This document shows, one piece after another, positions 5,977 to 22,887 of a stretch of 36,649 bases of DNA (positions within the stretch are counted from its first letter, which is position 1; each line of letters begins with the position of its first letter). Below the pieces are notes generated by a model, which saw only the letters and a program-made list of their open reading frames with translations, had not been told where the DNA came from and ran no database searches. The translations under genes were made by a program, and so were the position numbers. The stretch is from a bacterium. GTDB lineage: Bacteria > Patescibacteriota > Minisyncoccia > Phycocordibacterales > GCA-002787175. The stretch spans positions 1 to 36,649 of the forward strand of contig JAUYJM010000007.1 of the NCBI GenBank assembly GCA_030689285.1, written 5' to 3'.

Positions 5977-6090
5977 AAACTCGAATGGTCCCGAACTAGG
6001 CGCGAGTACGCGCCTCCCGAATCAATCATGAATCTGATATTAGGGAAAATTAGGGATAAAATTCGGGATTGATTAGAGAACAATAATTAT
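5977..6090 (+). repeat. intergenic repeat element, family A, copy 1 (sense to operon)
   Basis: Contains GTCCCGAAC, the hairpin GGCGCG-AGTA-CGCGCC (5999-6014), TCCCGAATCAATCATGAATCTGA and ATTAGGGA/ATTCGGGA motifs. It is nearly identical to the reverse complement of 17382-17501. Confidence 0.85.
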
Positions 6091-13237: not shown

Positions 13238-13579
13238 TTAAAAAATTAACCCCCCCTTTCTCGCTCCGTCCGCGAAAGATTTTACAGCCCCAGCGTACAA
13301 GTAGCCAGCCCTGTCAAAAACAACGCTTTTTATGCCTTTTTCTTTGGCCCGCTTGGCAATTACACTGCCGGCGGCCTCTGCCTTTTCAACCCTAGTTCCA
13401 TTTTTCTCTCCGCGAGTGGAAATTGAAACCAGAGTACTGCCGGAACTGTCATCTATTATTTGGCCTGAAATGTAACGATTGGAACGAAAAACCGAAAGGC
13501 GAGGACGGTTGGCCGTACCTTTTACCTTTGCGCGAATGCGCTTGTGTCTGGTTATTCTATTGTCGGAATTAGATTTCAT
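13238..13579 (-). CDS. rplR: 50S ribosomal protein L18
   Basis: RHKRIRAKVKGTANRPRLSVFRSNRYISGQIIDD. I use the ATG at 13579; the ORF-track start at 13582 is a TTG. Confidence 0.9.
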   Translation of the reverse strand: MKSNSDNRITRHKRIRAKVKGTANRPRLSVFRSNRYISGQIIDDSSGSTLVSISTRGEKNGTRVEKAEAAGSVIAKRAKEKGIKSVVFDRAGYLYAGAVKSFADGARKGGLIF

Positions 13580-13679
13580 CAAATTAGTTCTTCAAGTTCA
13601 TAAAGTTTAAAGTTTATAAAGTATTTGTCTCTTTGGCCTTACCTGATGAACTTTACAAACTTGACAGACTTTTAACTCT
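13580..13679 (-). repeat. intergenic palindromic repeat, family B, copy 1
   Basis: AAGTT(Y)AT-type octamer arms flank the conserved core TAAAGTATTTGTCTCTTTGGCCTTACCTGATGAACTTTA. It fills the whole rplF-rplR spacer. Confidence 0.85.
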
Positions 13680-14213
13680 TTATGCTGTTTTCTTTCCTTC
13701 CTTCCTTCTGACCACCTCGTCTTCGTATCTCATACCTTTTCCCTTATAAGGTTCAGGTTTCTTTTTGTCGCGCAGTCTTGCGGCAAACTGCCCCACTTGC
13801 TCTTTGTCAATTCCCGAAACAGTGATTAAGCTTTTTTCCACTACAACAGCGATTCCTTCCGGAATCGCGACAGACACGGGATGAGAAAATCCAAGTTGCA
13901 TCACAATGTCTTTACCTTTCACTTCAGCCCTGAAGCCAACGCCTTCCAATATCAGTTTTTTTTCGTAAGGAGTCACTACCCCTTTTATCATATTTTGAAT
14001 ATGAGACGAATAAGTGCCCCAAAGCATCTTGGAAAACACAGTCTCCTCTTTCGGCTTCAAGACAATTCCTTCAGGAGTCTTCTCTATTGAAATGAGAGGT
14101 AAAAAATTTCTGGTTAAAACTCCTTTGGGCCCCTTCACCGCAAAAGAACCGTCAGTGAGAGTAACCTCGGTTTGCGCTGGTATGGGTATTATTTTTTTGC
14201 CGATTCGCGACAT
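13680..14213 (-). CDS. rplF: 50S ribosomal protein L6
   Basis: MSRIGKKIIPIPAQTEVTL...GPKG..., 177 aa, at the spc-operon position. Confidence 0.95.
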   Translation of the reverse strand: MSRIGKKIIPIPAQTEVTLTDGSFAVKGPKGVLTRNFLPLISIEKTPEGIVLKPKEETVFSKMLWGTYSSHIQNMIKGVVTPYEKKLILEGVGFRAEVKGKDIVMQLGFSHPVSVAIPEGIAVVVEKSLITVSGIDKEQVGQFAARLRDKKKPEPYKGKGMRYEDEVVRRKEGKKTA

Positions 14214-14314
14214 AAATAAGTTTATAAAGTTATAAAGTTTAAAAGTTTATAAAGTATTCGGCTCTTTGGTTTTGCTTGATGAACTTTATGAACTTGATAA
14301 ACTTTCTAATCTCT
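14214..14314 (-). repeat. intergenic palindromic repeat, family B, copy 2
   Basis: Core TAAAGTATTCGGCTCTTTGGTTTTGCTTGATGAACTTTA. The left arm AAGTTTATAAAGTTATAAAGTT is complementary to the right arm AACTTTATGAACTTGATAAACTT. Confidence 0.85.
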
Positions 14315-14695
14315 TTACCATATTTCAAATAAAGGTTCTCCTCCCAGCCTTTCTTTTCTGGCATCCTCTCCGGTCATAATTCCCCGAGGCGTAGACACCG
14401 CCACTTTTCCGTAACCTTGTTTTACCCTCCTTATGTCAGATGCTCTTATGTAAACCCTTTGCGAAGGCTTGGAGACCCTTCTCACTCCCTCTATCTTGGG
14501 AAGACCTCCGTCGTAAGCTAAAACCACTTTGATTTCTCTGCTCTTTTCCTTTCTGGAAAAATCAGAAATAAAGCCGTTCCTCTTCATAAGACCTAAAATG
14601 GATTCGTTCAAGTTGGAAGCCGGAATGAATACCGACTGCTTTCCCGCCTTATTGGCGTTTTGTATCTTTGTTATGATGTTTGAAATTTTGTCCAT
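14315..14695 (-). CDS. rpsH: 30S ribosomal protein S8
   Basis: MDKISNIITKIQNANKAGK...GGEPLFEIW is an S8-like N- and C-terminus. Confidence 0.95.
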   Translation of the reverse strand: MDKISNIITKIQNANKAGKQSVFIPASNLNESILGLMKRNGFISDFSRKEKSREIKVVLAYDGGLPKIEGVRRVSKPSQRVYIRASDIRRVKQGYGKVAVSTPRGIMTGEDARKERLGGEPLFEIW

Positions 14696-14814
14696 AATTT
14701 TTGTTCCGAAGTCGGCTCCAAACGATGCTCCCTAATTTTTCACCGTAAACATATTCATAATAGGTTCGGGCACTCTCCGTGTTTGCGGTCAAATCCGGAT
14801 CCGGACTTCCAGGG

Positions 14815-15948: not shown

Positions 15949-16320
15949 TTAAACTATTTCAGCCGCCTTTGAGCTAATCGTTTGATAACCAAACTCGGCC
16001 ATCTCCCTCGGTATTGGACCGAAAATGCGTCCGGCAATCGGTTCGGACTTGGCTTTATCCACTAAAACCACGGCATTCTCATCAAACCTGATATAAGAGC
16101 CGTCAGAGCGCCTAAACGGTTTTACCTGCCTTACCACCACCGCGTGGAAAACATCTTTTTTCTTGACGGTTTTTCTCGGTTCCGCCTTCTGCACCGAAAT
16201 GACGACTTTCTCTCCCAATTCCGCGTACCTTTTCTTTGAGCCTCCGAGTACTTTGAAAACGCGTCCGAATTTTGCGCCGGAGTTGTCCGCGATTTTCACG
16301 ATGGAACGAGGTTGAATCAT
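15949..16320 (-). CDS. rplN: 50S ribosomal protein L14
   Basis: MIQPRSIVKIADNSGAK... Confidence 0.95.
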   Translation of the reverse strand: MIQPRSIVKIADNSGAKFGRVFKVLGGSKKRYAELGEKVVISVQKAEPRKTVKKKDVFHAVVVRQVKPFRRSDGSYIRFDENAVVLVDKAKSEPIAGRIFGPIPREMAEFGYQTISSKAAEIV

Positions 16321-16418
16321 AAGATTAGTTCGTCAAGTTTATCAAGTTGAAAGTTCTTAAAGTATTCCGACTTTGCCTTACTTGATGAACTTTATGGACT
16401 TTATGAACTTTTAACTTT
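16321..16418 (-). repeat. intergenic palindromic repeat, family B, copy 3 (right arm runs into the rpsQ 3' end)
   Basis: Core TAAAGTATTCCGACTTTGCCTTACTTGATGAACTTTA. The arm ...ACTTTATGGACTTTATGAACTTTTAACTT covers the last codons and the stop of rpsQ. Confidence 0.8.
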
Positions 16419-16664
16419 GAAGTGCTTATCCTTTGATATCGGTCTGCACTCCGCTATCGTCACTGTATCTCCGATCTTTTTCGTGTTGCCTGAATCGTGC
16501 GCCTTAAATCTTTTCGTAACGCGCATAAATTTATGGTACTTTGGATGTTTTACAAAACGATTCACTTCTACCACCACGGTATCTTTCATTTTATTAGAAG
16601 CGACCACACCCGAAAGTACTCTGGGCTTTTTTTCCATATTTATATTTTTTGTTTTGGAAATCAT
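16401..16664 (-). CDS. rpsQ: 30S ribosomal protein S17
   Basis: ...RVLSGVVASNKMKDTVVVEV...KHPKYHK... . The ATG at 16637 (MEKKPRVL...) is an equally plausible start. Confidence 0.9.
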   Translation of the reverse strand: MISKTKNINMEKKPRVLSGVVASNKMKDTVVVEVNRFVKHPKYHKFMRVTKRFKAHDSGNTKKIGDTVTIAECRPISKDKHFKVKSS

Positions 16665-17381: not shown

Positions 17382-17501
17382 ATGTAAATTTATTCTCTAA
17401 TCAATCCCTAATTTTAGTCCCGAATTTCCCTAATTCAGATTCGTGATTGATTCGGGAGGCGCGTACTCGCGCCTAAATTCGGGACTATTTGGGATGATTG
17501 G
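17382..17501 (-). repeat. intergenic repeat element, family A, copy 2 (sense to operon)
   Basis: Its reverse complement matches 5988-6085 over a ~55-nt near-identical core that includes the GGCGCG-AGTA-CGCGCC hairpin (17458-17473). It fills the rpsC-rplP spacer. Confidence 0.85.
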
Positions 17502-18563: not shown

Positions 18564-18703
18564 GGCGTGTACGTGTAGCGTGTAGCGTGCAACGTGTAGC
18601 GTAGAATCTTGTAACGTGTAGCGTCAGAGTATTTCTTTTCCGGCGTTACACGTTACAAGTTACACTTTTTAGATTATGGCGTTACAAGCTACACGTTTTG
18701 TGA
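18564..18703 (-). repeat. long palindromic intergenic element, B-like architecture with a different repeat unit
   Basis: Tandem (A)CGTGTAGCG units on the left and CGTTACA/GCTACACG units on the right. CTTGTAACGTGTAGCG pairs with CGTTACACGTTACAAG with 1 mismatch. The loop TCAGAGTATTTCTTTTCCGG shares AGTATT..CTTT with family B. Confidence 0.8.
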
Positions 18704-19341: not shown

Positions 19342-21078
19342 TTACATCTTCTCTGGCGTCTTAATACCGAGAAGCCAAAGCCCGTTTTTCATTACTTGAG
19401 CGAAAGCATATGTCAAAGCAATTTTGTAAGGAGAAGACGGGTCGCCCTTGTCCACTATTTTTTCTTTGGCGTACCAAGAGTTAAACTGGCCCGCAATCTC
19501 TGTCAAATAGGTTACGATATGGTGTGGCGCGTATTCACTGGCCGCTCTTTCCACAATTTCCGGAAATCTGATAATCAGTCTTTCCAAAGAATTGGGCTCA
19601 TTTCTTTTTTCCGGAAATTGGAAATTGGAAATTGGAAATTGGAAATTTTCTGCTCTGGCCTTCGCCAGAACAGAACTCGCTCTTGTGTGCGAATACTGCA
19701 AATACGGTCCAGAGTCGCCTTCAAAAGAAACCGATTTTTCAAGCTCAAAAACAATATCTCCCCCTATGGCTTGCCGTAGTATGGAATACTTTATTGCTCC
19801 GACCGCTATAATTTCAGCTGTTTCTTCCCTTTTTTCTTCCGAAAAATCTCGTTCTTTCATTTTTTCTTTAACCAGATTCTTAACTTGCTTCAAAAGCGCC
19901 TCGCCTGTTATGACATTTCCTTTTCGCGAAGACATCTTGCCTTCGGCAAAACGCATCATTCCATGACTTATATGCTCGGTTTTATGGCCAATTTTCTCAT
20001 CTACTTCGCTCAAAGCGGAGAGCACAACCTTAAAATAATCGTCCTGTTCGCTTGCGGTTACAATTATAGACCTTTCAAGGTCTTCGTGACGTTTAAATTT
20101 TTCCGTATTTAAACCCATCTCTTTGGCTTCGTATGTCGGCAACCCTTTTGAAGTCACGAATACTCTTTTATGCAGTCCTCTTTTCTCACCATCAAATATG
20201 ACGGCTCCTTCGCTTTCTTCAAATACGCCTTTTTTCAAAAACTCCAGCGTTATTTCCTTTCCTCTGCCCGCCACTTCACTTTCAAAAATGTATTCGTCAA
20301 ATTTTGTACCCAAAACGGCGTAAAGTTCTTCAAAATGTTCCAGGCTCCACGTTCGGCCTTTTTCATATATTTTATTCGCTTCCGCGTCTGACTTTTCATA
20401 AAGAATTTTGTTTAGCTCGTCTATTTCGGCTTTATTCTCCTTGGAATTCTCATAAGCGCTGGAGCCGAACACGTACGCTTCGCCCAAAAAAGCGGTCTTT
20501 TCCGACAACGAGTCGCTGTCTTTCGGTACGCTACCAAGTTTATTTTTGTATCCCCAAACAGCTTTTGCGATATGAAGTCCCGTGTCACTCGGGTAGCACA
20601 TTCTCACGACCTTCGCTCCGGAAAACTCGGTCAAACGGGAGATGGATTCTCCTATGGCATTACTCATCAAATGCCCGATATGAAACGGCTTGAAAATATT
20701 GGGGTCGGTGTATTCCACCATCACTTTTTCATCCAAAAGATGTTCACTTTTTCCAAACCTTTCTTTTTTCTCCAAAATATCTGTTACGCCAAGGGCAAAA
20801 ACTTTTGGTTTTAGATGGAAGTTTATAAACCCCGCTCCCGCCACCTCTGCTTTTTCCACTTCTTCCAACTGATTTTCCGTAACGCTCCTTACCAAATCAA
20901 TCGCGAGCTCCCGCGGACTTTTGCCGACTTTCTTTGCGTAAACAAGCGCCGCGTTTGTGGCAAAGTCCCCATGCGCCAAATCGGCTGAATGCTTTAATTC
21001 AACTTTTGCGGTTTTGACCCCCTCCTTTTTTAGGCCGTCTTCCACCGTTTTTTTTATTTTTTCCTTTATTTCTATCAT
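19342..21078 (-). CDS. argS: arginine--tRNA ligase
   Basis: Class I HIGH motif (FHIGHLMS), MSSRKG (KMSKS-like), and the C-terminal DALR anticodon-binding region ...YLTEIAGQFNSWY...; 578 aa. Confidence 0.9.
   Translation of the reverse strand: MIEIKEKIKKTVEDGLKKEGVKTAKVELKHSADLAHGDFATNAALVYAKKVGKSPRELAIDLVRSVTENQLEEVEKAEVAGAGFINFHLKPKVFALGVTDILEKKERFGKSEHLLDEKVMVEYTDPNIFKPFHIGHLMSNAIGESISRLTEFSGAKVVRMCYPSDTGLHIAKAVWGYKNKLGSVPKDSDSLSEKTAFLGEAYVFGSSAYENSKENKAEIDELNKILYEKSDAEANKIYEKGRTWSLEHFEELYAVLGTKFDEYIFESEVAGRGKEITLEFLKKGVFEESEGAVIFDGEKRGLHKRVFVTSKGLPTYEAKEMGLNTEKFKRHEDLERSIIVTASEQDDYFKVVLSALSEVDEKIGHKTEHISHGMMRFAEGKMSSRKGNVITGEALLKQVKNLVKEKMKERDFSEEKREETAEIIAVGAIKYSILRQAIGGDIVFELEKSVSFEGDSGPYLQYSHTRASSVLAKARAENFQFPISNFQFPEKRNEPNSLERLIIRFPEIVERAASEYAPHHIVTYLTEIAGQFNSWYAKEKIVDKGDPSSPYKIALTYAFAQVMKNGLWLLGIKTPEKM
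19613..19647. repeat. heptanucleotide microsatellite (GGAAATT)x5 inside argS
   Basis: Five perfect tandem copies. On the coding strand they encode ENFQFPISNFQFPEK. Confidence 0.95.
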
Positions 21079-21096
21079 TCTTAAATTTGTCCTTTA

Positions 21097-22887
21097 TCAC
21101 ACATTCCCCAGTTTTGACATTTTGTGAAAATATGAATTCGGATTTCCCAAAAGCTCCTGCGGATTGCCGGACTCCACTATCTTACCTTTATCTAAAACAT
21201 GTATGATGTCGGCATCGACTACGGTGGAGAGTCTGTGAGCTATCACAATTATAGTCATTTCCCCTTTTAAGCCGTTCAGAGTTTCTTTTACAAGACTTTC
21301 CGACTGGTTATCAAGCGCGCTTGTAGCTTCGTCAAGCACCAAAATTTCCGGATCTCTTGCCAAAGCTCGAGCGAGGGCTATTCGCTGTCTTTCACCTCCC
21401 GAATGCCTTGCCCCTCTCTCTTCAACGGATGTATCAAACTTTTGGGGCAACTTCATAATAAACTCGTAGATATTAGCTTGTTTGGCGGCATCAGCGGCTT
21501 TTTCAAAAGTGATTGATGAATCGTAAAAGCGAATGTTTTCAAGAATAGAGTCGTTTTTGAGAAATACGTCCTGCGCCACATATACCGTCTTTTTTCTCCA
21601 CTCTTTTATGTTTATTTCCGAAACGTCCCTGCCGTCAACGGTTATCCTTCCGGCTGAAGGCGAAATAAAACGAAGAAGCATATCCGCCAAAGTGGTTTTG
21701 CCGGAACCGGAAGGTCCTATTATCGCCACGGTCTGCCCTTTTTTTACTGAAAAAGCAATGTCGTTTACAACGTTTTCGCCGCCGTACTTAAACGACACGT
21801 CTTCAAATCTTATCTGTTCTTTGAAACTCATAGGCATACTTCCGTTTTGTATGTCCGCGTTTTTTGACACGGTTTCAAACATTTTTTCCACCGATTGGGC
21901 GTGAGGCAGAGAACCGCTCAAGATATTTTTTGAATTTTGGATTTTTTCAATTCTTATAAACATCTGTTGAATCAAGTAAATTATCGGGATGAAAGCGGTT
22001 ATGTTGAATGTTAAAAATTTATAAGACACGGCAAAAACCGCTAAAATGAAAATCAGACTCATCGGCTCAATGGATACCTTCACAAGAGTCTTGATGTCTT
22101 GTTTTCTTATTTCCGCCCGCTCGTATTTTCTGAAAAATGACACGAGACTTTCAAGCACCGTCTTTTCCGCGCTAAAGGCCTTTACCGACTTGATACCGTA
22201 AAGCGCTTCGCTTATGCCGTGTGCCGCGTCTTTCGTCGCGGAAGCCAAAGTTCGGGCGGATTCTCGGATTTTCCTATCAAAAGGTTTAAAAATAAAGAGA
22301 ACAACTATGCCGACCAAAAGCGAAAGAGCGGTGATTTTCGGAGAGAGAAAAAATGCCACAGCAGCGTATGTGACAAGGGTTGAAACGCTCAGAAATGCAA
22401 CCATGGTAGTGTCCAGTATTTTCGCGCTATGCTCAATATCGGCCATCACCATATAGTCCAAATGTCCGAGCTTTTGCTTTCTCAAAAAAGAAAAGGAGCT
22501 CCCGAACAGGCGTTCGCACATTTTTTTTCTGATTGAGACTTTATAGTCGCCCACTACGCGCACCCTTATCCTGCCGAAAATAAAAAGGAGTACGGCTTTT
22601 AAGACAAAAAGCAGAAATACGATTAAAAGAAGTTTTTGAAAACCGAACGATATGCCCATGATTTCCGACATCTTATGCAGGGCGCTTACGACAGAGTTGT
22701 CCGCTAAAGTATTCGGATTTACAAGAGACATAAAAAGCGGCACAAGCAAAGTGATGCCTATACCCTCCGCGAGACCTGAAAGCATACCTAGAGCGGATAA
22801 CGAAACCAGCTTTACCCTATAGCCGGTATAAAGGGTGTTAAAAAGCCGCCCTACCTTCCAAAAAAGTTTAAACGGGTTTTTTATCAC
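21097..22887 (-). CDS. ABC transporter, fused permease/ATPase (MsbA-like exporter)
   Basis: Six N-terminal TM segments, Walker A GPSGSGKTT, signature HSGGERQR, Walker B ILVLDEATSALD. GTG start. Confidence 0.9.
   Translation of the reverse strand: MIKNPFKLFWKVGRLFNTLYTGYRVKLVSLSALGMLSGLAEGIGITLLVPLFMSLVNPNTLADNSVVSALHKMSEIMGISFGFQKLLLIVFLLFVLKAVLLFIFGRIRVRVVGDYKVSIRKKMCERLFGSSFSFLRKQKLGHLDYMVMADIEHSAKILDTTMVAFLSVSTLVTYAAVAFFLSPKITALSLLVGIVVLFIFKPFDRKIRESARTLASATKDAAHGISEALYGIKSVKAFSAEKTVLESLVSFFRKYERAEIRKQDIKTLVKVSIEPMSLIFILAVFAVSYKFLTFNITAFIPIIYLIQQMFIRIEKIQNSKNILSGSLPHAQSVEKMFETVSKNADIQNGSMPMSFKEQIRFEDVSFKYGGENVVNDIAFSVKKGQTVAIIGPSGSGKTTLADMLLRFISPSAGRITVDGRDVSEINIKEWRKKTVYVAQDVFLKNDSILENIRFYDSSITFEKAADAAKQANIYEFIMKLPQKFDTSVEERGARHSGGERQRIALARALARDPEILVLDEATSALDNQSESLVKETLNGLKGEMTIIVIAHRLSTVVDADIIHVLDKGKIVESGNPQELLGNPNSYFHKMSKLGNV

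Follow-up and report, generated by a model that had tools for sequence, protein, structure and literature searches.

The spc operon in our window, a 36,649-nt stretch of patescibacterial DNA, contains three spacers that are occupied by versions of one AT-rich palindrome of about 100 nt, here called Family B. We were interested whether these palindromes serve the mRNA in which they lie or whether they have come there as mobile elements. The copies and their neighbouring genes are as follows.

13238..13579, minus strand: rplR (L18), with copy A as upstream neighbour.
13580..13679, minus strand: Family B copy A, filling the rplF-rplR spacer (whole-genome profile E = 3.3e-26; orthologue in the related genome G001 81% identical); its left end TAAAGAGTTAAAAGT begins with the rplF stop and its right end ACTAATTTG adjoins the rplR ATG.
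13680..14213, minus strand: rplF (L6), between copies B and A.
14214..14314, minus strand: Family B copy B, filling the rpsH-rplF spacer (E = 7.5e-23; G001 orthologue 75% identical).
14315..14695, minus strand: rpsH (S8), with copy B as downstream neighbour.
15949..16320, minus strand: rplN (L14), with copy C as upstream neighbour.
16321..~16421, minus strand: Family B copy C, in the rpsQ-rplN spacer (E = 5e-22; G001 orthologue 94% identical).
16401..16664, minus strand: rpsQ (S17), overlapping copy C at its 3' end.

Copy A is bounded by the rplF stop (13680-13682) and the rplR ATG (13577-13579), copy B by the rpsH stop and the rplF ATG. Copy C ends at the rplN ATG; its left arm contains about the last six codons of rpsQ along with the stop of that gene (16401-16403). 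The initial annotation had described the three as equally oriented hairpins with a common core and tandem-unit arms that fill their spacers from stop to start, and this description was borne out: all copies are present on the strand of the genes and share the core (copy C is one base short in the CT(Y)TTTG block), and their arms are built of 8-9-nt units (AAGTTYATM or its complement). Alignment of the three gave a mean column identity of 82%. The elements have inverted ends (AGATTAG...CTAATCT and TAAAGAG...TTATG), carry no ORF and are predicted to fold into hairpins of 29-37 pairs with dG of -16 to -23 kcal/mol. A profile derived from them re-found the same three in the whole genome with E = 3e-26 to 5e-22, far beyond chance. 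Less exact was the earlier statement that the remaining genes of the cluster are separated by 2-60 nt, as rpsS-rplV (140 nt), rpsC-rplP (120 nt) and rpsN-rpsH (119 nt) are long as well and contain other hairpin families, two of which lie here:

17382..17501, minus strand: 'Family A' hairpin with ATTAGGGA/TCCCGAAT units, filling the rpsC-rplP spacer; same class, different word.
18564..18703, minus strand: hairpin of a third word family with CGTGTAAC/GCTACACG units, filling the rpsS-rplV spacer; same class.

'Family A' has a second copy at 5997-6083 and recurs as a 141-nt insert in the helix-6 region of the 16S rRNA gene (contig C48), and the third family occurs in G001 with the same loop in a different spacer (rpsC-rplP).

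Although the three spc spacers are indeed filled by Family B, the family is not limited to them. A census with nhmmer found about 11 copies dispersed over the 689-kb genome (G000), a count taken from an assembly which lacks the 23S rRNA gene and in which several copies are located at contig ends. Copies were detected on six further contigs; four lie at r-protein junctions, the fourth of these between rplC and rplD on contig C54, and four within the 16S rRNA gene or the spacer that follows it. The left arm encodes the C-termini of both S17 and L3. That three copies lie within 3 kb in the same orientation could suggest neutral duplications confined to the spc operon, which was the null hypothesis of the initial annotation. 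This idea can practically be dismissed, because copies also turn up on those six contigs, within rRNA genes, and in relatives and other phyla, and because neutral DNA could not have stayed 75-98% identical between G000 and G001 when four-fold degenerate sites agree at 37%.

The rRNA copies revealed a second setting of the family. Whereas the three focal copies sit between protein genes, inserts of about 120-145 nt take the place of helix tips in the 16S gene and also occur in the spacer downstream of it; cmscan placed one of 144 nt at a helix tip at model positions ~178-200 and one of 118 nt at a helix tip at ~440-480. Predicted folding energies of two rRNA copies are -72.7 and -70.0 kcal/mol (z = -10 and -8). 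Family B copies are also present in the 16S and 23S genes of G001, and related copies in those of G001, G005 and G024. Comparison of the tail of contig C73 with the region upstream of the G001 23S gene gave a match for the element alone. This placement at 16S and 23S helix tips is exactly that of the intervening sequences (IVSs) excised by RNase III, which are bounded by a stem and cut by this enzyme in the systems covered by PMC4990558. A gene for RNase III is present in G000 (C11:185-577, 142 bits), and by analogy with classical IVSs the rRNA copies are probably removed by it.

A third setting is the flank of genes with a PF05635 domain, the domain of the 23S-rRNA-IVS protein, which resembles Avd (PMC10053308). 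Four PF05635 genes occur in G000, each in the loop of an inverted repeat with periodic arms and extending from stop to start. On contig C56 a Family B left arm is followed by a PF05635 ORF (61.5 bits); no contig containing the missing half of this cassette, or overlapping the end of C73, was found in the assembly. The complete cassette is preserved in G001 (contig C7), with a PF05635 ORF of 120 bits and Family B arms on both sides, and Family B matches adjoin PF05635 genes in G024 (C7) and G005 (C4). All PF05635 genes inspected (25/25) sit between periodic inverted arms, each with a word specific for its cassette. The nine proteins whose arms contain the Family B word form one clade with a support of 99/99, drawn from Patescibacteria, Bacteroidota and Mycoplasmatota, and are separate from 14 PF05635 proteins with other words, including the G000 paralogues. 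Thus arm word and protein clade travel together across phyla, and a 21-nt arm pattern matches more than 120 loci across phyla.

One arm family therefore appears in three settings in G000, namely as flank of a PF05635 gene, as insert in the 16S gene and its spacer, and as filler of four stop-to-start junctions of the S10 and spc operons. From this, Family B is probably the gene-less miniature of a mobile hairpin cassette of the rRNA-IVS type. In the full cassette a small PF05635 gene would be enclosed by a pair of inverted arms, each a tandem array of 8-9-nt words, and insertion would occur at rRNA helix tips and between closely spaced cistrons, with no recognisable transposase.

To follow gain and loss, the orthologous operons of relatives were compared as the initial annotation had proposed, and junctions proved to be filled or empty in different congeners. 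G001, which has the most Family B matches (35), is filled at the four spacers orthologous to those of G000 and in addition at rpsN-rpsH, rplN-rplX and rpoA-rplQ, with rplN-rplX being a spacer of only 2 nt in G000. In G002 all these junctions are short (11-39 nt) and free of the element, e.g. rpsH-rplF with 39 nt and rpsQ-rplN with 11 nt. Among 80 metagenomic relatives a single one carries Family B close to rplF, the median spacers being 15 and 11 nt; the best L6 matches in this set are at most 65% identical and include no near-isogenic pair of a filled and an empty site. When the filled rplN-rplX junction of G001 was set against the empty one of G000, the element lay exactly between stop and ATG without a recognisable duplication; the empty sites of G002 are too diverged for alignment.

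Element DNA is far more alike between congeners than the saturated backbone. Four-fold sites of G000 and G001 are 37% identical (250/684), yet orthologous elements are 98, 94, 81 and 75% identical, and the cassette ORF differs at one position in 188 nt next to a host gene of ~55% identity, so that the family must be either much younger than the split of the hosts or under constraint. A long tract of homologous recombination was rejected as source of this identity, because the codons beside the element diverge at the normal rate, and at rpsQ-rplN the high identity is lost where the element ends. The cassette ORF is a clear sign of recent spread in genomes with saturated synonymous sites. In the junction copies the identity is unevenly distributed: between copy C and its G001 orthologue the loop and right arm (~70 nt) are 100% identical and all six differences fall in the left arm, and loop variants specific for individual spacers are common to G000 and G001. 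Both observations fit purifying selection on the 3' half, and hence a function, better than a pure passenger.

This brings in the reading favoured by the initial annotation, according to which the hairpins in the r-protein mRNA are kept by selection as RNase III cleavage sites, stability determinants or translation gates; a hairpin common to the rRNA might then coordinate r-protein and rRNA processing. Conservation far above the saturated synonymous sites and ending at the element borders would be expected from it, as would the invariant ~70 nt of loop and 3' arm in front of rplN, and the presence of an RNase III gene and the location of most copies at ribosomal loci are compatible with it. 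The stem base pairs the region of the stop codon with that of the start codon in two of the four r-protein copies of G000. In addition, orientation is the same at all ten protein-gene sites in G000 and G001, which could mean selection or function and speaks against the copies being passengers. However, the near-identity of the cassette gene, which extends to synonymous positions, shows that recent spread alone suffices to explain such conservation, and G002 and most other relatives manage with short spacers and no element. The G001 copy at rpsH-rplF has a left arm of 11 units and has lost the 3' (right) arm, so that the hairpin cannot form (-4.6 kcal/mol).

RNA folding also gave a picture at odds with a selected hairpin. 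Hairpins are predicted as the initial annotation had claimed, but covariation did not support them: RNAalifold of eight mRNA-sense copies gave a consensus fold of -3.3 kcal/mol with a positive, i.e. penalising, covariation term, in which pairing is limited to the invariant AAAGT/ACTTT blocks. Among the rRNA copies there is too little variation for their covariation to be informative. Folded as mRNA, the hairpins reach about half the stability of those in rRNA (mean -19.5 versus -39.6 kcal/mol), and in 8 of 11 copies from G000 and G001 the antisense strand folds better. An unbiased cross-phylum sample had neither an orientation bias relative to genes (32:25) nor a strand bias in stability (mean ddG ~0); we therefore do not claim as a general rule that the mRNA strand is the weak one. 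Promoter and terminator signals stood at background in our scan (11 versus 7.5±2.6 and 9 versus 6.8±2.7), the single promoter-like match in copy C placing its -10 hexamer over the rplN ATG, and a promoter or terminator role was thus rejected. In the window no Rfam family except tmRNA reached its gathering score, and there was no match to an r-protein leader. Taken together, selected mRNA hairpins appear rather unlikely as the reason for these elements, and cleavage, stabilisation or uncoupling at the r-protein junctions is a hypothesis that ranks behind the mobile IVS-type element, to which the evidence points first.

How could such an element persist within essential operons? As a mobile cassette derivative it may be tolerated because its ends provide, or leave intact, the stop codon of one cistron (TAA in ...TAAAGAG) and the start codon of the next (...TTATG), and its arms would be rich in stop codons. 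The weak hairpin of the mRNA sense could be melted by the terminating ribosome, so that the next cistron would still be translated. The mRNA copies would then be mainly tolerated passengers, and their 3' half may serve as a co-opted leader of the next cistron.

The weak point of a mobile element is that no mechanism of movement is visible and no target-site duplication could be defined. G000 was searched for DDE/rve transposases and reverse transcriptases, and none was found. It does contain one Y1_Tnp-like ORF (C16:7469-8125, 37 bits), bracketed by an inverted repeat of 18 bp, and Y1_Tnp genes occur in 19 of 31 related genomes, which might suggest REP- or MITE-like elements moved by a conventional transposase of the IS200/RAYT-like type. 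But the repeat flanking the Y1 gene, GGTGTCCAACCTCCAGAA, is unrelated to Family B, unlike in REP/RAYT systems, where the Y1 gene is flanked by its own repeats, and G001, despite being richest in Family B, gave no Y1_Tnp match. Of the features of a MITE, Family B has the inverted ends, the small size and the lack of coding capacity; its gene-bearing parent encodes a PF05635 four-helix-bundle protein instead of a known transposase. With the absence of DDE and rve genes from G000 and a target-site duplication that could not be defined also counting against it, mobilisation by a conventional transposase is very improbable, and replication- or retro-based movement was likewise rejected for G000 (no reverse transcriptase, no DDE/rve, Y1 gene not associated).

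As no other candidate mobility gene is linked to the arms, the PF05635 protein itself deserves attention. The periodic arms could be arrays, in DNA or RNA, to which the protein of the same cassette binds, thereby driving insertion, copying or protection, with gene-less copies being served in trans. Periodic arms around every PF05635 gene inspected and the covariation of word and protein clade would agree with this, and Avd, an accessory protein of diversity-generating retroelements (DGRs), binds nucleic acid in these systems. On the other hand, a period of 9 nt is out of step with helical phasing, and co-travel is expected of any cassette that is inherited or transferred as a unit, so that recognition of the word by the protein is not demonstrated by it. 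For Coxiella, moreover, the IVS protein S23p is described in PMC4990558 as probably not produced in vivo. We regard binding arrays as quite improbable in this specific form. More generally, one may speculate that PF05635 proteins are mobility or maintenance factors of widespread transposase-less hairpin cassettes, each reading its own 8-9-nt arm word and promoting a homing-like insertion at the tips of rRNA helices and between the stop and start codons of strongly expressed operons; gene-less copies would be served in trans, and some would have taken on the role of conserved leaders of the following cistron, connecting rRNA with r-protein transcripts via a shared hairpin. We consider this unlikely as a whole, but arm words, cognate protein and RNase III are now available as substrates for testing.

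Among known systems, Correia elements (NEMIS) of Neisseria offer a model of how elements like Family B could work, being gene-less intergenic palindromes of ~100-150 bp that are co-transcribed with their neighbours and form hairpins which are RNase III substrates. They have no sequence relation to Family B and differ by defined terminal inverted repeats, a TA duplication and hundreds of copies, and we know of no link of Correia elements to rRNA genes, PF05635 cassettes or arms of periodic words. Rickettsia palindromic elements are similar as selfish palindromes tolerated in essential genes, comparable to the S17 and L3 C-termini described here, but are defined by in-frame insertion into ORFs, whereas Family B occupies the tips of rRNA helices and the junctions between stop and start codons, and its parent carries a gene. 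REP/BIME elements are also imperfect intergenic palindromes, often between co-transcribed genes; in contrast to the ~100 nt and about 11 copies of Family B, which is not associated with Y1, they measure 20-40 nt, number in the hundreds and flank a RAYT gene.

The closest likeness is to the rRNA IVSs known from Salmonella, Leptospira and Coxiella, as far as these are covered by PMC4990558. Both have a long stem formed by terminal inverted repeats and an insert that replaces an rRNA helix tip (in 16S here and in 23S in G001), the loop of some copies contains a PF05635 ORF (G000 contig C56, G001 contig C7), the distribution is patchy with apparently horizontal spread, and the host encodes RNase III. 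Family B differs in that the focal three copies, and 4-7 per genome in the genus, lie between genes of r-protein operons, that its arms are arrays of 8-9-nt words and that several copies reside in 16S, which is rare among classical IVSs. From the same host group (CPR/Patescibacteria), Tsurumaki et al. (2024, PMC11270868) reported many short ORF-less inserts in rRNA genes as 'probably' of the IVS type, together with IVP ORFs in inserts of 16S and 23S. Like Family B, these are below 200 bp, not introns, and located at tops or bases of stem-loops; in the parts of that study available to us they are treated within rRNA genes only, with no mention of filled r-protein spacers, arms of periodic words or near-identity across genomes. 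Mobile hairpins of this kind would account for contig breaks and for spacers of unusual length in CPR rRNA and r-protein operons. rRNA IVSs, with their small S23p/IVP gene, were described decades ago. As the same family of sequences is present in this one small genome in three forms, namely as rRNA insert, as IVP-gene cassette and as miniature filler of r-protein junctions, IVSs may now be seen as one manifestation of a general mobile hairpin element.

With 689 kb in 79 contigs at 43.7% GC, the window being one entire contig (C19, 36.6 kb), the source genome (G000) is marked by its size and its insert-laden 16S rRNA gene as that of a CPR/Patescibacteria-type bacterium. The S10/spc genes of the window lie on the minus strand, and the palindromic repeats noted by the initial annotation in three of their spacers were borne out, with a mean column identity of 82%; a profile of the three copies recovered each of them in a whole-genome search (E = 3e-26 to 5e-22). 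The arms of these Family B elements, on either side of a short loop, are built from 8-9-nt units in tandem; read along the mRNA strand, the unit is AAGTTYATM in the 5' arm and its complement in the 3' arm. Each copy occupies the full spacer: the left end (TAAAGAG...) opens with or includes the upstream stop codon, and ATG follows directly after the right end (...ACTAATYTK). A genome-wide census with nhmmer led to about 11 copies in G000, including a fourth 'type 1' copy and four near-identical 'type 2' copies with a different loop and an additional outer stem, CCGCATCACATG...CATGTGATGCGG.

Family B copies in the source genome (C-numbers are contigs)
Window 13580-13679, minus strand: copy A, between rplF and rplR
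Window 14214-14314, minus strand: copy B, between rpsH and rplF
Window 16321-~16421, minus strand: copy C, between rpsQ and rplN
C54: fourth type 1 copy, between rplC and rplD, orientation as in copies A-C, ending at ATG
C48:245-369: type 2 copy
C26:1-135: type 2 copy
C26:3480-3598: type 2 copy
End of C73: type 2 copy
C26:3027-3121: copy in the spacer downstream of the 16S gene
C6: copy between ftsZ and trxB
C56: copy

Copy C supplies the stop codon of S17 together with its last ~6 codons, and the rplC|rplD copy likewise supplies the final four codons of L3. Roughly 8/11 copies lie at rRNA or r-protein loci, with r-protein junctions holding 4/7 of those outside the rRNA locus (binomial p ~2e-4 under the rough assumption of 5% such junctions). 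G000 has a split S10 operon, with rplC-rplD-rplW-rplB on C54; in the window, argS (PF00750) and an ABC transporter gene come before rpsS (19342-22887 region). The genes on C54 are followed by a 1208-aa ORF for a putative class I aminoacyl-tRNA synthetase. In the congener G001, rpsS and the rplC|rplD spacer are ~2 kb apart on one contig, suggesting an unsplit operon.

Family B was also detected within the 16S rRNA gene, the halves of which were assigned to C48(-) and C26(+) by Rfam. Rfam alignments placed a 144-nt insert at the helix tip at model position ~178-200 (helix-10 region) and a 118-nt insert at the tip at ~440-480, in the helix-17 region, which is also the point of a break in the assembly. 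The helix-6 region carries a 141-nt insert of another word family, Family A. In rRNA sense with flanks, the rRNA copies fold at -72.7 and -70.0 kcal/mol (z -10 and -8; antisense -53.8 and -48.7), and the type 2 rRNA copies are nearly identical between G000 and G001. RNase III is encoded in G000 and may excise them. The G000 assembly as a whole yielded no 23S gene. The stretch from the 16S 3' end to tRNA-Ile (C26:1649-3791) holds a LAGLIDADG-type ORF (2300-2878), a group-II-D1D4-like Rfam match (2270-2383) and two Family B hairpins.

Other periodic-arm hairpins in the source genome
Window 17382-17501: Family A, filling rpsC|rplP, ATTAGGGA/TCCCGAAT units around GGCGCGAGTACGCGCC
Window 5997-6083: Family A, inverted, just downstream of a perfect minus-strand TTGACA-17-TATAAT
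C48 ~490-640: Family A, the 141-nt insert at the 16S helix-6 tip
Window 18564-18703: third family, filling rpsS|rplV, CGTGTAAC / GCTACACG units, loop GCCGGAAAAGAAATACTCTGACGC

The third family, with the same loop, sits at rpsS|rplV in G000 and at rpsC|rplP in G001, which is direct evidence that hairpin families change sites. The rpsN|rpsH spacer (window 14696-14814, 119 nt) is not a periodic palindrome; it holds a Family B copy in G001 and measures 13 nt in G002, a second congener.

A link to the 23S-rRNA-IVS protein family PF05635 (23S_rRNA_IVP) was found on C56, where a Family B left arm lies 5' of a PF05635 gene (61.5 bits) that is truncated at the end of the contig. The orthologous site on C7 of G001 has the cassette complete, in the order left arm(s) of Family B, PF05635 ORF of 114 aa (120 bits), right arm of Family B and ATG of the next gene. 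In G024 and G005, which belong to other families of the order, Family B matches also adjoin PF05635 genes. Each of the four PF05635 genes of G000 lies in the loop of an inverted repeat with periodic arms that reaches from upstream stop to downstream ATG and has its own word, the remaining three being inserted exactly stop-to-ATG between unrelated genes.

Further PF05635 genes in their own periodic-arm hairpins
C74:2073-2369: word AATGTTGTA
C52:4342-4629: word AATTTTAAA
C17:5513-5803: word AAATCCGAAAT-like

The loop of gene-less copies is loosely like the two junctions of such a cassette, AAGTAAGG..AAAGAG and CCGAATACTT, a likeness, suggestive only, that would fit their origin by internal deletion. 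Across phyla, an exact 21-nt arm pattern was found at at least 120 loci in Patescibacteria, Bacteroidota, Ignavibacteria, Mycoplasmatota and others; the matches listed include many small hairpins directly beside an ATG, and some matches adjoin PF05635 ORFs. The C56 protein fragment scored 60-90 bits against PF05635 proteins beside the same word in other phyla, compared to 24 bits or none against its own-genome paralogues. In a tree of 23 PF05635 proteins, where most B-word rows had been found through a search for the word and relatives share labels, the 9 with B-word arms grouped in a single clade (99/99), separate from the 14 bearing other words. This shows that the arms move together with the gene as a unit, and implies nothing as to the protein reading the word.

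Comparison of orthologous spacers in the congeners revealed both presence and absence of the elements. G001 carries Family B at the four orthologous spacers as well as at rpsN|rpsH, rplN|rplX (only 2 nt in G000) and rpoA|rplQ; G002, of the same genus, has short spacers, with 14, 39 and 11 nt at the positions of copies A, B and C. Of 80 metagenomic relatives (L6 47-65% identical), 1 has Family B nearby; their median spacers are 15 and 11 nt, and those of at least 60 nt (8/73 and 5/75) are mostly periodic-arm hairpins with other words. G000 and G001 are old relatives, with r-proteins 45-92% identical and four-fold degenerate sites saturated at 37% identity. Their orthologous elements are 98% (rplC|rplD), 94% (rpsQ|rplN), 81% and 75% (the other two) identical, the cassette ORF shows 1 difference in 188 nt next to a ~55% identical host gene just upstream, and the high identity stops at the element borders. 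As the synonymous-site identity of the cassette gene cannot come from protein-level selection, this shows that the cassette DNA, at the same site in two diverged genomes, is recently of common ancestry. For the identity of the gene-less copies two readings remain, exchange between lineages limited to the element, and purifying selection. The six differences between the rpsQ|rplN copies are all confined to the left arm, and each site has its own loop variants, common to both genomes; this favours constraint of some kind on the 3' half.

The initial annotation had proposed that the hairpins would be processing or translation-uncoupling elements of the mRNA, a reading that appears improbable; the structural evidence in mRNA sense is weak. 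Mean sense dG was -39.6 kcal/mol for 20 rRNA-locus copies (four genomes) compared to -19.5 for 11 protein-gene copies (Mann-Whitney p = 9e-6, with copies not independent), and 8/11 mRNA copies fold better on the antisense strand. AAGTC occurs 22 times in the 5' arm (AAGTT 24), almost without the matching GACTT in the 3' arm (1, AACTT 25), so that the mRNA has C·A mismatches where the antisense strand has G·U. RNAalifold on 8 copies gave -3.3 kcal/mol and no support from covariation. In the rpsH|rplF copy of G001 (C8, L019 8633-8773), the left arm runs to 11 tandem units and the right arm is nearly deleted, so that unit number varies independently of pairing, minisatellite-like. Element orientation is uniform at 10/10 protein-gene sites of G000/G001; a cross-phylum sample chosen without orientation bias gave 32:25 and no strand-stability bias, and the orientation rule is therefore local to these two genomes. 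Promoter-like and terminator-like matches were at background level only.

The data show one family in three contexts, filled and empty sites, youth of the elements relative to their host, and arms that travel together with the gene. The best reading of Family B is a gene-less miniature of a hairpin cassette of the IVS type, mobile now or recently in the genus. Operon copies may be tolerated through their stop- and start-compatible ends, a terminating ribosome would melt the weak mRNA stem, and the 3' half could have been co-opted as a leader. DDE, rve and RT genes were not found in G000; a Y1_Tnp-like ORF (IS200/RAYT-like, 218 aa) lies within a perfect 18-bp inverted repeat, GGTGTCCAACCTCCAGAA / TTCTGGAGGTTGGACACC, unrelated to Family B (C16:7366-8146 for the whole), and the copy-rich G001 gave no Y1_Tnp match. 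Just upstream of this ORF, a AATGTTGTA-word stretch resembles the arms of the C74 IVP cassette. Within the library covered, a full-text literature search found no description of Family B-type elements in r-protein operon spacers or of periodic-word arms. IVSs, their excision by RNase III and the S23p ORF are already known (PMC4990558), PF05635 has been likened to Avd (PMC10053308), and short ORF-less inserts and IVP ORFs have been described in CPR 16S/23S genes and tentatively called IVSs (PMC11270868).
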